Positions 30,304 to 55,040 of a stretch of DNA of 64,000 nucleotides are shown here, one piece after another. The position numbers and the translations under genes were made by a program. Source of the DNA: Escherichia coli (GTDB taxonomy: Bacteria > Pseudomonadota > Gammaproteobacteria > Enterobacterales > Enterobacteriaceae); NCBI RefSeq assembly GCF_009931435.1, contig NZ_CP043414.1; one strand, written 5' to 3'. The stretch's first letter is position 1; every line of letters starts with the position of its first letter. The notes beneath the pieces are model-generated. The model was given only the letters and a program-made list of their open reading frames with translations, was not told the DNA's origin and did no database searches.

Positions 30304-30555
<252 letters not shown>

Positions 30556-30559
30556 CTAA

Positions 30560-32917
<2,358 letters not shown>

Positions 32918-35163: not shown

Positions 35164-35229
35164 ATTGCATTATGCCCCGTACTTTTGTACGGGGTTTGTA
35201 CTCTGTATTCGTAACCAAGGGGTCAGCTC

Positions 35230-35760
35230 GTGACAACTATAGTAAGCGTACGCCGTAACGGCCATGTGGTCATCGCTGGTGATGGTCAGGCCACGTTGGG
35301 CAATACCGTAATGAAAGGTAACGTGAAAAAGGTCCGCCGTCTGTACAACGACAAAGTCATCGCGGGCTTTGCGGGCGGTACTGCGGATGCTTTTACGCTG
35401 TTCGAACTGTTTGAACGTAAACTGGAAATGCATCAGGGCCATCTGGTCAAAGCCGCCGTTGAGCTGGCAAAAGACTGGCGTACCGATCGCATGTTACGCA
35501 AACTTGAAGCACTGCTGGCAGTCGCGGATGAAACCGCTTCACTGATCATCACCGGTAACGGTGACGTGGTGCAGCCAGAAAACGATCTTATTGCTATCGG
35601 CTCCGGCGGCCCTTACGCCCAGGCTGCGGCGCGCGCGCTGTTAGAAAACACTGAACTAAGCGCCCGTGAAATTGCTGAAAAGGCGTTGGATATTGCAGGC
35701 GACATTTGCATCTATACCAACCATTTCCACACCATCGAAGAATTAAGCTACAAAGCGTAA
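35230..35760 (+). CDS. hslV: ATP-dependent protease subunit HslV
   Basis: 176 aa, N-terminal Thr ([11 protein letters not shown]). Confidence 0.95.
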
Positions 35761-49709: not shown

Positions 49710-49874
49710 CGCCCGACTCTCTTATGTTGTGTTGTGATGAGCAAAGCGTGCCAGAAGGTTAACCAAACATTAAAGAATAAAAAAAGATTGGCTATAACTT
49801 GCGGGTATATGTTGGGGGATTAAAAAGGCGGAAGAAATCCGCCTTAGATTGCTGACAAAGTGCGCTTTGTCCAT

Positions 49875-49972
49875 GCCATATGCGGCGCGAACGCCTTATA
49901 CGGCCTACAAAAGTTTGCAAATTCAATAAATTGCAGAATTCATGTAGGCCTGATAAGCGAAGCGCATCAGGC
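49875..49972. repeat. REP/BIME palindromic units
   Basis: GCCATATGCGGCGCGAACGCCTTATACGGCCTAC and GTAGGCCTGATAAGCGAAGCGCATCAGGC. Confidence 0.75.
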
Positions 49973-51171: not shown

Positions 51172-52074
51172 TTATGAAAGCATAGACCGTTTACCCTCCC
51201 TGGGTACGACGGAACAGGGGTCCTGATGGATAATCACATCCGATCCCGGAAAACGCCGTAAAATAGCCTGCTCTACCTGATCCGCCACCATATGTGCCTG
51301 AACCAAAGGCAGAGAGTCTTCCATTTCCAAATGAATCTGAATAAAGCGGGTCGGCCCTGACTGCCGCGTGCGAAGATCGTGAGCGCCGCTAACACCCGGC
51401 CAGGAAATCACGATATCAATAATTTCTTGCCGTTCCTCATCAGGTAATGCGCGATCCAGTAATGACTGTACCGCCTCATATCCCATGCGTAACGCGCTAT
51501 ATAAAATATAGATGCCGATTCCCAATGCAAACAGAGCATCGGCGCGATGCCAGCCGTACCAGGACAACCCCAGCGCCAGCAGAATTGCGCCGTTCATCAT
51601 AACATCAGACTGGTAATGTAGCATATCAGCCCGCACCGCCTGGCTTTGCGTCCGGCGCACCACCCACCGCTGAAACGAGACAAGGATAATCGTACAAATT
51701 AGCGCCACAATTGTCACGATAACCCCGACGCCTGGATCTGTCATCGGTGTTGGAGATACCAGATGTTGAATACCCGTCAAAAACAGGAATAGTGCCGAAC
51801 CGGAGATAAACATACTTTGCGCCAGCGCCGCGAGGGACTCAGCTTTACCGTGACCAAACGAGTGATTATCGTCGGCAGGTTGCAGGGAATATCGCACCAC
51901 CAGTAAATTCGTCAACGACGCGCCGATATCCACCAGCGAATCCACCAGCGCGGCGAGAATACTCACCGACCCGGTATACCACCATGCAAAAATTTTAATC
52001 AGCAATAACAGCGAAGCCATCGCCGTTGCAGCAATCGCCGCCCGACTGACCAGCCGTCCATAAGATTGATTCAT
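51172..52074 (-). CDS. fieF: Cation-diffusion-facilitator ferrous iron/zinc efflux pump
   Basis: Start [13 protein letters not shown]; 300 aa. Confidence 0.92.
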
Positions 52075-52153
52075 AAATACTCCCGCTATCAACTGACGGT
52101 AGTATAACGGAAGCAAATCATCTGCAATGCATTAAGCAGTAGGCAAATTGAGG

Positions 52154-52222
52154 ATAAAAAAAACCCCCACATCATGTGGGGGAAGACAGGGATGGTGTCT
52201 ATGGCAAGGAAAACAGGGTTTA
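52154..52222 (-). ncRNA. cpxQ: CpxQ sRNA (processed 3' UTR of cpxP) with its intrinsic terminator
   Basis: Directly 3' of the cpxP stop: ...CCUUGCCAUAGACACCAUCCCUGUCUUCCCCCACAUGAUGUGGGGGUUUUUUUU, matching the known CpxQ 3' region as recalled. Confidence 0.5.
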
Positions 52223-52723
52223 CTACTGGGAACGTGAGTTGCTACTACTCAATAGCTTCAACGATGAACTTTTTTGCCATTGCGTCACGTCGCGCAACTG
52301 CTCCATTCGTTGTTGATGTTTCTCGTTTAAAACCGCTTGCTGCTCCGGCGTTAACAGGCGATACATTTGGTTGCGGACTTTTGCCATCTCAACCTGACGA
52401 GCAATTTGCTCATTCGCCATTTTTTCTGCCTGTGCGCGCACAGCGTTTTCATCAAAATTTTCTGCGGTGACAAGGCGATGCATTGTCTCCAGTTCGCTAA
52501 CATTAACAGGAGGCTGTTCGTGCCGGGCCTGTTGCATAAGATCTCGCATCTGCTGACGCTGATGTTCGGTTAAACTTATGCCGTCGAACATATGGCTCTG
52601 CGTACTGCGCTGCGTAAGTTCTTCACCCGGATGCCAGTTATCGCCTGAACCGACTTCAGCAGCGTGGCTTAATGAACTGACTGCCAGCGTTGAGGCCATG
52701 ACGGCAGCGGTAACTATGCGCAT
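52223..52723 (-). CDS. cpxP: Periplasmic Cpx pathway inhibitor/chaperone CpxP
   Basis: 166 aa [21 protein letters not shown], two LTxxQ motifs. Confidence 0.93.
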
Positions 52724-52802
52724 CATTTGCTCCCAAAATCTTTCTGTCGCGATTCAACGATAGAGAGTTTACGATTCAGGCTGCAAACATGCGTCAGGGG
52801 GT

Positions 52803-52817
52803 GTAAAACAACGTAAA
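52803..52817. promoter_or_regulatory. CpxR-P binding site in cpxP/cpxR divergent promoter
   Basis: GTAAA-acaac-GTAAA, an exact match to the GTAAA-N5-GTAAA consensus. Confidence 0.7.
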
Positions 52818-52872: not shown

Positions 52873-53571
52873 ATGAATAAAATCCTGTTAGTTGATGATG
52901 ACCGAGAGCTGACTTCCCTGTTAAAGGAGCTGCTCGAGATGGAAGGCTTCAACGTGATTGTTGCCCACGATGGGGAGCAGGCGCTTGATCTTCTGGACGA
53001 CAGCATTGATTTACTTTTGCTTGATGTCATGATGCCGAAGAAAAATGGTATCGACACATTAAAAGCACTTCGCCAGACACACCAGACGCCTGTCATTATG
53101 TTGACGGCGCGCGGCAGTGAACTTGATCGCGTTCTCGGCCTTGAGCTGGGCGCAGATGACTATCTCCCGAAACCGTTTAATGATCGTGAGCTGGTGGCAC
53201 GTATTCGCGCGATCCTGCGCCGTTCGCACTGGAGCGAGCAACAGCAAAACAACGACAACGGTTCACCGACACTGGAAGTTGATGCCTTAGTGCTGAATCC
53301 AGGCCGTCAGGAAGCCAGCTTCGACGGGCAAACGCTGGAGTTAACCGGCACTGAGTTTACCCTGCTCTATTTGCTGGCACAGCATCTGGGTCAGGTGGTT
53401 TCCCGTGAGCATTTAAGCCAGGAAGTGCTGGGCAAACGCCTGACGCCTTTCGACCGCGCTATCGATATGCACATTTCCAACCTGCGTCGTAAACTGCCGG
53501 ATCGTAAAGATGGTCACCCGTGGTTTAAAACCTTGCGTGGTCGCGGCTATCTGATGGTTTCTGCTTCATGA
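52873..53571 (+). CDS. cpxR: Envelope stress response regulator CpxR
   Basis: 232 aa MNKILLVDDDRELTSLLKELLEMEGF. Confidence 0.96.
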   Translation: MNKILLVDDDRELTSLLKELLEMEGFNVIVAHDGEQALDLLDDSIDLLLLDVMMPKKNGIDTLKALRQTHQTPVIMLTARGSELDRVLGLELGADDYLPKPFNDRELVARIRAILRRSHWSEQQQNNDNGSPTLEVDALVLNPGRQEASFDGQTLELTGTEFTLLYLLAQHLGQVVSREHLSQEVLGKRLTPFDRAIDMHISNLRRKLPDRKDGHPWFKTLRGRGYLMVSAS

Positions 53572-54941
53572 TAGGCAGCTTAACCGCGCGCATCTTCGCC
53601 ATCTTCTGGCTGACGCTGGCGCTGGTGTTGATGTTGGTTTTGATGTTACCCAAGCTCGATTCACGCCAGATGACCGAGCTTCTGGATAGCGAACAGCGTC
53701 AGGGGCTGATGATTGAGCAGCATGTCGAAGCGGAACTGGCGAACGATCCGCCCAACGATTTAATGTGGTGGCGGCGTCTGTTCCGGGCGATTGATAAGTG
53801 GGCACCGCCAGGACAGCGTTTGTTATTGGTGACCACCGAGGGCCGCGTGATCGGCGCTGAACGCAGCGAAATGCAGATCATTCGTAACTTTATTGGTCAG
53901 GCCGATAACGCCGATCATCCGCAAAAGAAAAAGTATGGCCGCGTGGAACTGGTCGGTCCGTTCTCCGTGCGTGATGGCGAAGATAATTACCAACTGTATC
54001 TGATTCGTCCAGCCAGCAGTTCTCAATCCGATTTCATTAACTTACTGTTTGACCGCCCGCTATTACTGCTGATTGTCACCATGCTGGTCAGTACGCCGCT
54101 GCTGTTGTGGTTGGCCTGGAGTCTGGCAAAACCGGCGCGTAAGCTGAAAAACGCGGCCGATGAAGTTGCCCAGGGAAACTTACGCCAGCACCCGGAACTT
54201 GAAGCGGGGCCACAGGAATTCCTTGCCGCTGGTGCCAGTTTTAACCAGATGGTCACCGCGCTGGAGCGCATGATGACCTCTCAGCAGCGTCTGCTTTCTG
54301 ATATCTCTCACGAACTGCGCACGCCACTGACGCGCCTGCAACTGGGTACGGCGTTATTGCGCCGTCGTAGTGGTGAAAGCAAGGAACTGGAGCGTATTGA
54401 AACCGAAGCCCAGCGTCTGGACAGCATGATCAACGACCTGTTGGTGATGTCACGTAATCAGCAGAAAAACGCGCTGGTGAGCGAGACATTGAAAGCTAAC
54501 CAGTTGTGGGGTGAAGTGCTGGATAACGCGGCGTTCGAAGCGGAACAAATGGGCAAGTCGTTTACGGTTAACTTCCCGCCTGGGCCGTGGCCTCTGTATG
54601 GCAACCCGAACGCTCTGGAAAGTGCGCTGGAAAACATTGTTCGTAATGCTCTGCGTTATTCCCATACGAAGATTGAGGTGGGCTTTGCGGTAGATAAAGA
54701 TGGTATCACCATTACGGTGGACGACGATGGTCCTGGCGTTAGCCCGGAAGATCGCGAGCAGATTTTCCGTCCGTTCTATCGCACCGATGAAGCGCGCGAT
54801 CGTGAATCTGGCGGTACGGGCTTAGGGCTGGCGATTGTCGAAACAGCTATCCAGCAGCACCGTGGTTGGGTGAAGGCAGAAGACAGCCCGCTGGGCGGTT
54901 TGCGGCTGGTGATTTGGCTGCCGCTGTATAAGCGGAGTTAA
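53568..54941 (+). CDS. cpxA: Envelope stress sensor histidine kinase CpxA
   Basis: 457 aa; ATGA overlap with cpxR; H-box SHELRTPLTR. Confidence 0.96.
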   Translation: MIGSLTARIFAIFWLTLALVLMLVLMLPKLDSRQMTELLDSEQRQGLMIEQHVEAELANDPPNDLMWWRRLFRAIDKWAPPGQRLLLVTTEGRVIGAERSEMQIIRNFIGQADNADHPQKKKYGRVELVGPFSVRDGEDNYQLYLIRPASSSQSDFINLLFDRPLLLLIVTMLVSTPLLLWLAWSLAKPARKLKNAADEVAQGNLRQHPELEAGPQEFLAAGASFNQMVTALERMMTSQQRLLSDISHELRTPLTRLQLGTALLRRRSGESKELERIETEAQRLDSMINDLLVMSRNQQKNALVSETLKANQLWGEVLDNAAFEAEQMGKSFTVNFPPGPWPLYGNPNALESALENIVRNALRYSHTKIEVGFAVDKDGITITVDDDGPGVSPEDREQIFRPFYRTDEARDRESGGTGLGLAIVETAIQQHRGWVKAEDSPLGGLRLVIWLPLYKRS

Positions 54942-54950
54942 ACTCCGCAT

Positions 54951-55040
54951 TTGTAGGCCAGATAAGGCGTTACGCCGCATCCGGCGTTTGAGCAGAATGC
55001 CTGATGCGACGCTGATAGCGTCTTATCAGGCCTACTCTCC
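54951..55040. repeat. REP/BIME palindromic units
   Basis: GTAGGCCAGATAAGGCGTTACGCCGCATCCGGCG and GCCTGATGCGACGCTGATAGCGTCTTATCAGGCCTAC. Confidence 0.75.

Follow-up and report, generated by a model that had tools for sequence, protein, structure and literature searches.

In the 64,000-nucleotide stretch of E. coli DNA analysed here (hereafter the window), the segment 52213..52156 on the minus strand almost certainly encodes CpxQ, the Hfq-dependent small RNA (sRNA) that originates in the 3' UTR of cpxP. The 3' part of the same segment coincides with an unoccupied attachment site for P2-like phages of the Wphi type.

Identification of CpxQ and its gene context

The curated record of K-12 MG1655 contains an ncRNA gene, cpxQ (b4716, "small regulatory RNA CpxQ"), which is 58 nt long and located at 4106330-4106387 between cpxP and fieF. 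An ungapped alignment of this gene to the window showed identity at 57 of the 58 nucleotides. The sole difference falls in the terminator loop, where CpxQ nt 42 (window position 52172) is an A in the window and a C in K-12, while nt 1-41, and with them the entire seed, are identical. We number CpxQ such that nt n corresponds to window position 52214-n. The preliminary description of this segment had matched it to the known CpxQ, proposed a comparison with the cpxP 3' UTR of K-12, and named a mismatch in the seed region as the observation that would speak against the match. The comparison, in the same gene context, bears the match out; because the seed is unchanged relative to K-12, the seed-mismatch test does not refute CpxQ, and the sequence provided no evidence against the assignment. 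CpxQ at this locus is thus already known, with a curated gene in K-12 and a literature of its own, as the description had also recognized, and it represents no new biology.

The window allele was recovered with 100% identity in 4192 of 5424 E. coli records, and another 1223 records fell in the 95-99% identity band, which is where one mismatch, such as the loop change in K-12, places a record. The A at 52172 appears to be the majority allele in E. coli, and the C in K-12 is apparently a minority variant. The locus, the strand, the length of 58 nt and the parental gene are the same as for the CpxQ of K-12 (b4716) and Salmonella (Chao & Vogel 2016; Grabowicz et al. 2016), and the seed, the terminator, the U8 tail and the CpxR box are shared as well, with the single loop nucleotide distinguishing the window from K-12.

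An 801-nt query covering the cpxP and fieF locus matched 5425 of 5426 complete E. coli genomes, with at least 99% identity in almost every one. In the window, the plus strand encodes cpxA and cpxR (52873-54941), and the minus strand encodes cpxP, fieF, pfkA and sbp. The stop codon of cpxP, UAG, occupies 52225..52223 (minus), and the 3' UTR begins directly after it; read from 5' to 3' on the minus strand, 52222..52154 is UAAACCCUGUUUUCCUUGCCAUAGACACCAUCCCUGUCUUCCCCCACAUGAUGUGGGGGUUUUUUUUAU. CpxQ is encoded on the cpxP strand, directly 3' of the stop codon of that gene and upstream of fieF, whose ATG at 52074 is 81 nt further downstream of the sRNA. The earlier placement of the RNA within the cpxP 3' UTR upstream of fieF therefore holds. 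The interval first assigned to it, 52154-52222, covers the entire cpxP 3' UTR, but is wider than CpxQ by 9 nt on the 5' side and by 2 nt past the U tract, and was given with no strand. The features of the locus are listed in Table 1.

Table 1. Features of the cpxP-CpxQ-fieF locus and copies of the phage attachment core. Positions refer to the window unless another record is named.
Feature	Position	Strand	Basis or remark
CpxR box, GTAAAACAACGTAAA, in the cpxR-cpxP divergent promoter region	52803..52817		Perfect GTAAA-N5-GTAAA
cpxP CDS, parental mRNA of CpxQ	52726..52223	minus	ORF list; annotated cpxP in 5425/5426 E. coli genomes and K-12
Linker from cpxP stop to processing site, 9 nt, UAAACCCUG	52222..52214	minus	5' end taken from K-12 annotation
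Mature CpxQ sRNA, 58 nt, UUUUCCUUGCCAUAGACACCAUCCCUGUCUUCCCCCACAUGAUGUGGGGGUUUUUUUU	52213..52156	minus	57/58 identical to K-12 b4716
5' single-stranded seed, CpxQ nt 1-14, UUUUCCUUGCCAUA	52213..52200	minus	Unpaired in MFE fold
Predicted hairpin 1, AGACA / loop CCAUCCC / UGUCU	52200..52184	minus	MFE and centroid fold
Rho-independent terminator hairpin, CCCCCACA-UGA-UGUGGGGG, 8 bp, 6 G-C, loop 3	52182..52164	minus	Terminator scan
U8 tail, transcript 3' end	52163..52156	minus	Terminator scan
Unoccupied 47-bp attB core of Wphi-type P2-like phages (CpxQ nt 15-58 and AUC)	52199..52153	minus	Identity to phage attP
fieF, downstream gene, marks locus end, outside the sRNA	52074..51172	minus	ORF list and K-12
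Further core copies	L087 915-956, 32372-32413; L085 1801-1847 (Wphi attP)		Orientation in phage same as ogr

Structure of the RNA

The RNA was predicted to fold with -17.4 kcal/mol (z = -2.3 relative to shuffled sequences) into a structure in which the 5' third is unpaired and is followed by a small hairpin and then by the terminator. CpxQ is said to have two seed regions, R1 and R2, described by Chao and Vogel in 2016. The preliminary description had pointed to a hairpin followed by an 8-U tract, and a terminator scan recovered exactly this combination, an 8-bp stem with six G-C pairs and the U8 run, a signal far stronger than chance would give. The hairpin doubles as the terminator of cpxP. 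The U8 run is expected to be the Hfq-binding tail, a role taken from published work (PMC9438474).

Transcription and RNase E processing

The CpxR box is the only perfect match to GTAAA-N5-GTAAA in the 64-kb window and is located 77-91 nt upstream of the cpxP ATG. At the level of the sequence, this fits Cpx-dependent expression through the cpxP promoter. Since some sRNAs from 3' UTRs are independently transcribed, CpxQ might instead originate from a promoter of its own inside cpxP, as MicL does, and owe nothing to RNase E. A promoter scan of the minus strand between 52214 and 52330, at the end of cpxP, found no sigma-70-like promoter. That the last 100 nt of cpxP have no such site fits processing and not independent transcription, and the 5' end of the RNA, UUUU, is a poor initiating sequence (PMC10250213), so that we consider a separate promoter very unlikely.

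Processing from the cpxP mRNA, as proposed in the preliminary description, agrees with the published work, in which RNase E cuts the cpxP mRNA into CpxQ (PMC9438474, PMC5222698, PMC5736990), and an RNase E- and Hfq-dependent CpxQ of about 58 nt with a 5'-P end has been reported for both K-12 and Salmonella (PMC9438474, PMC10250213). In the window, cleavage is predicted to occur between G52214 and U52213, in the context UG↓UUUU (the arrow marks the cut). The RNase E motif is RN↓WUU with a critical U at +2 (PMC5222698). The window retains this U and fits the motif at W+1, U+2 and U+3, but has a U at position -2 rather than the preferred purine. The context CCCUG↓UUUU was conserved in 81 of the 81 sequences of the alignment described below. 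Cleavage, expression and Hfq binding in this strain would be as in K-12 and Salmonella, from which they are carried over.

Other sRNAs that RNase E releases from 3' UTRs, such as SroC, SdhX, NarS and GlnZ, are likewise cut near the stop codon, are bound by Hfq and have the mRNA's own terminator as their 3' end (PMC9438474, PMC5222698). They differ from CpxQ in their parental operons, their seeds and their regulons.

Conservation across the Enterobacteriaceae

The window was aligned with the cpxP loci of 80 other species of Enterobacteriaceae, giving 81 sequences from genera that include Citrobacter, Salmonella, Klebsiella, Enterobacter, Kosakonia, Raoultella, Kluyvera, Atlantibacter and Franconibacter. 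In CpxQ the majority base had a frequency of 0.96; the value fell to 0.62 in the final 60 nt of cpxP and to 0.46 in the 60 nt downstream, in agreement with the report that no part of cpxP is better conserved than its 3' UTR (PMC9438474). A 31-nt core of CpxQ was invariant in all 81 sequences, as was CCUUGCCAUAGACACCAUCCCUGUCUUCCCC, and the seed (nt 1-14) was invariant in all of them except for a change in length between U4 and U5. The linker that joins the cpxP stop codon to the processing site differed from species to species in both length and sequence.

Within CpxQ, it is the terminator stem that varies, and its changes are compensatory, with A-U pairs replaced by U-A or C-G and C-G pairs replaced by U-A or G-C. 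Two pairs of the stem were changed on both sides, in 10 cells of the alignment, and 95.9% of the cells were paired, as compared to at most 61% when the 3' partners were slid. All five pairs of hairpin 1 were invariant in the alignment; since these pairs never vary, covariation speaks neither for nor against this hairpin.

Target pairing

CpxQ is a very stable 5'-P sRNA whose targets nhaB, skp, agp, ydjN, fimA and cfa are repressed by occlusion of the ribosome binding site or by RNase E-dependent decay (PMC9438474, PMC5736990, PMC4817254, PMC6755755, PMC10250213). For cfa, a compensatory pair of mutations, C11G/G135C, has been published, and a site near 312 is described for nhaB (PMC6755755, PMC10250213). 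We paired the CpxQ of the window in silico against the target sequences of K-12. Nucleotides 4-11 are predicted to pair with cfa -135..-128, including the C11:G-135 pair, and CpxQ nt 1-36 bound the cfa leader better than 100 of 100 shuffled sequences (z = -3.6). Pairing of nt 6-13 with nhaB +307..+314 was obtained solely in a search restricted to that region. An unbiased duplex search over nhaB -150..+500 placed the best duplex at the translation start, where it was no better than those of shuffled seeds (z = -0.17), and for this reason we regard the nhaB pairing as a consistency check and not as independent support.

The conservation and the pairing together bear on the question of whether the segment might be the intrinsic terminator of cpxP and nothing else, a 3' UTR with no function in trans. 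A canonical terminator is indeed present and must end cpxP transcription. Against this reading, the 35 nt on the 5' side of the hairpin are unneeded for termination and are nevertheless invariant across the 81 sequences, while the hairpin itself changes by compensation. The seed also matches target sites that have been validated experimentally (PMC6755755), and regulation by CpxQ has been demonstrated genetically (PMC4817254, PMC9438474). Point mutations in the seed that spare the terminator abolish target regulation, as already reported for K-12 and Salmonella. A terminator with no further role is accordingly so improbable that it can hardly be entertained, and the assignment to CpxQ stands.

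A phage attachment site within CpxQ

Searches with the 58-nt CpxQ query returned about 670 extra partial matches among the E. coli genomes. One of these adjoined the integrase gene of a 32-kb circular "plasmid" that represents an entire P2-like phage genome. The region was matched by 62 phage records. In the ones examined, among them Wphi, L-413C and fiAA91-ss, a segment of 47 bp is identical to window 52199..52153. In Wphi (AY135739, 22550-22596), all 47 positions are identical to the window core, and the segment is located between ogr and int, which is the position of attP in the P2 family.

A four-way alignment displayed the exchange of arms that is associated with integration: cpxP-core-fieF in attB, ogr-core-int in attP, cpxP-core-int in attL and ogr-core-fieF in attR. 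E. coli O103 RM8385 has two direct copies of the core, 31,457 bp apart, which flank a complete prophage of about 31.4 kb in the order cpxP-core-int ... ogr-core-fieF. The junction of cpxP, CpxQ and an integrase gene was identified in 793 of 5426 complete E. coli genomes (about 15%), and prophages also occupy the site in representatives of Citrobacter, Kosakonia and Enterobacter. The window contains a single copy of the core, from which it follows that its attB is unoccupied; that 52199..52153 would serve as attB for recombination by Int in this strain is a prediction. In several E. coli genomes (H57, H58 and H61-H63), the cpxP-CpxQ-integrase junction was present together with only one copy of the core in the record, which suggests that they carry prophage remnants that have lost attR.

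The site has been published as cpxP-fieF for Wphi1 in E. coli W (PMC3032704) and as position 4104392 of MG1655 (PMC3448106), and was treated as intergenic because CpxQ was not known at the time. Among the papers that could be searched, none was found that links CpxQ with this attB. Since the core spans CpxQ nt 15-58 and three additional nucleotides, CpxQ is whole again at the cpxP end after insertion, and a copy that lacks the 5' part follows ogr. The arrangement resembles the other attB sites of the P2/186 family in RNA genes, namely tRNA-Ile for 186, ssrA for Fels-2, and cyaR and rybB for P2-type prophages, in which a long core is identical to the 3' part of the RNA gene and the gene is kept intact (PMC3448106, PMC3032704). 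It differs from the sites of 186, Fels-2 and the P2-type prophages in having been described as intergenic and, in the window, in being empty. An attB inside the sRNA gene is a modest reinterpretation and not a new system.

The presence of attB offers another account of the conservation, in which repeated insertion and excision of P2-type phages would have homogenised the sequence irrespective of any sRNA function. The 47-bp core is identical between hosts and phages, as seen in the 62 matching phage records, and the site is occupied in several genera and in the 793 E. coli genomes mentioned above. However, nt 1-14 of CpxQ are located outside the core and are just as invariant, and the terminator stem, which is inside the core, does vary between species. 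The consensus of Hrs1, an sRNA from Erwinia that is described in the next section, keeps the internal motif, and equal conservation of nt 15-41 in clades that never carry Wphi-type phages argues against phage passage as the sole cause. The attB role alone cannot explain the conservation, given the invariance of nt 1-14 outside the core and the internal motif in Erwinia, and we consider it very improbable that the sRNA function has no part in it. The two roles are not exclusive: attB is real but secondary to CpxQ.

Three further observations concern the sequences around the core. In unoccupied loci of E. coli, E. albertii and S. enterica subsp. diarizonae, the U tract is followed by AUC (52153-52155), giving UUUUUUUU-AUC as in the phage core, and most other genera have GCC or GUC at this place and not AUC. 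The final three base pairs of the core may be a scar that earlier phage passage left behind, or they may determine host range. In the left arm of the Wphi attP (L085 1746-1800), GTGGACAGTG is located upstream of the core and matches the arm-site consensus of P2-type Int, tgTGGaCa (PMC3448106). Immediately before the CpxQ-identical core, the Wphi attP has a U-rich run, UGCUUUUUUGUG.

In Wphi-type phages, CpxQ nt 15-58 are placed directly downstream of the late activator gene ogr and in the same orientation, and the same is seen at attR in lysogens. The segment carried by the phage comprises the internal conserved region and the complete Hfq-binding terminator with its U tail. Read-through from ogr could conceivably yield a 5'-truncated CpxQ-like RNA of phage origin that would compete with CpxQ for Hfq or affect the targets of the internal region, although we consider this unlikely.

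Hrs1 and the annotation of CpxQ

A search of the whole window against Rfam 15 at gathering thresholds returned nothing at the CpxQ locus. The preliminary description had also suggested an alignment to the Rfam model of CpxQ, but no CpxQ family matched. With permissive settings, cmscan gave one match at the locus, to Hrs1 (RF02628), at 52156-52228 on the plus strand, antisense to cpxP, with 44.5 bits and E = 2e-6. The gathering score of this family is 56.4 bits; the window falls short of it and matches on the wrong strand, so that it is not assigned to the family. Hrs1 is a 74-nt Hfq-dependent sRNA from Erwinia amylovora that is encoded between cpxP and fieF and was detected by Northern blot; it is co-oriented with both genes ("> > >"), has a rho-independent terminator and was described as Erwinia-specific (PMC4070566).

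Taken at face value, the match could indicate a plus-strand RNA gene that is antisense to the 3' UTR of cpxP. Apart from its subthreshold score, the consensus of the family looks like a reversed terminator: it opens with A7 followed by a hairpin, as a terminator does when read backwards. When compared to the cpxP-sense strand of the window, the reverse complement of the consensus agreed at 58 of 74 positions and the given orientation at 37. Both hrs1, as noted above, and the annotated cpxQ of K-12 are on the strand of cpxP, and scans of the plus strand at the locus found no terminator and no promoter. A plus-strand RNA gene is thus exceedingly improbable. Two plus-strand ORFs of 98 and 46 aa at 52174/52176, antisense to cpxP, were rejected, as they were supported by neither a terminator nor a promoter on that strand.

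The reverse-complemented Rfam consensus shares CCUUGCCA, UCCCUGUCU and the U8 tail with the window, and Hrs1 is evidently the Erwinia orthologue of CpxQ. The orientation of the Rfam model is opposite to that of CpxQ. Judging by the printed consensus and the table in the source paper, the RF02628 model appears to be stored reverse-complemented, and the score of the E. coli sequence below the gathering threshold reflects the orientation of the model and the narrow range of seed taxa and not a missing homology.

The RefSeq/PGAP records of E. coli that were listed contain no feature under the CpxQ match, and the manually curated K-12 record has the gene. This is in line with the earlier remark that an annotation based on ORFs would miss CpxQ. 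As there is no working CpxQ model in Rfam, pipelines that rely on it, including PGAP/RefSeq, leave CpxQ unannotated.

Other Rfam matches in the window were ES036/CssrF in the spacer between sbp and pfkA (49910-49951, plus, 48.2 bits) and naRNA4/CssrE after cpxA (54956-55032, plus, 72.6 bits), both above gathering, and a weak naRNA4/CssrE match beside ES036 (49869-49905, minus). The ClpQY (hslVU) heat-shock promoter element (35175-35232, plus) and a gammaproteobacterial leader of the L31 ribosomal protein (30523-30575, minus) were recovered at gathering level and belong to families that are already in Rfam.

Discussion

CpxQ is a textbook example of an sRNA derived from a 3' UTR and forms the non-coding branch of the Cpx response to envelope stress. 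In the scheme that we propose for this locus, the steps downstream of the sequence features are taken from published work in E. coli and Salmonella. Envelope stress would activate CpxA/CpxR, and CpxR-P would drive transcription of cpxP, which would halt at the CpxQ terminator. RNase E, guided by Hfq, would cut between the G and the UUUU shortly after the stop codon, giving a stable, Hfq-bound sRNA with a 5'-monophosphate. The 5' seed (UUUUCCUUGCC...) and the second conserved, internal region would pair with the mRNAs of nhaB, skp, agp, fimA, ydjN and cfa, and the pairing would block translation or promote decay by RNase E, resulting in fewer membrane proteins while CpxP handles the misfolded ones.

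For annotation, the locus exposes a gap, with Rfam 15 having no working CpxQ model and the related Hrs1 model being apparently reversed and too narrowly seeded. For the phages, if an RNA read from ogr into the core were indeed produced, they would gain a handle on the inner-membrane stress response of the host. Finally, the placement of the "intergenic" cpxP-fieF site of Wphi inside an sRNA gene means that P2-type phages obey the rule by which temperate elements target, and rebuild, the 3' ends of RNA genes.
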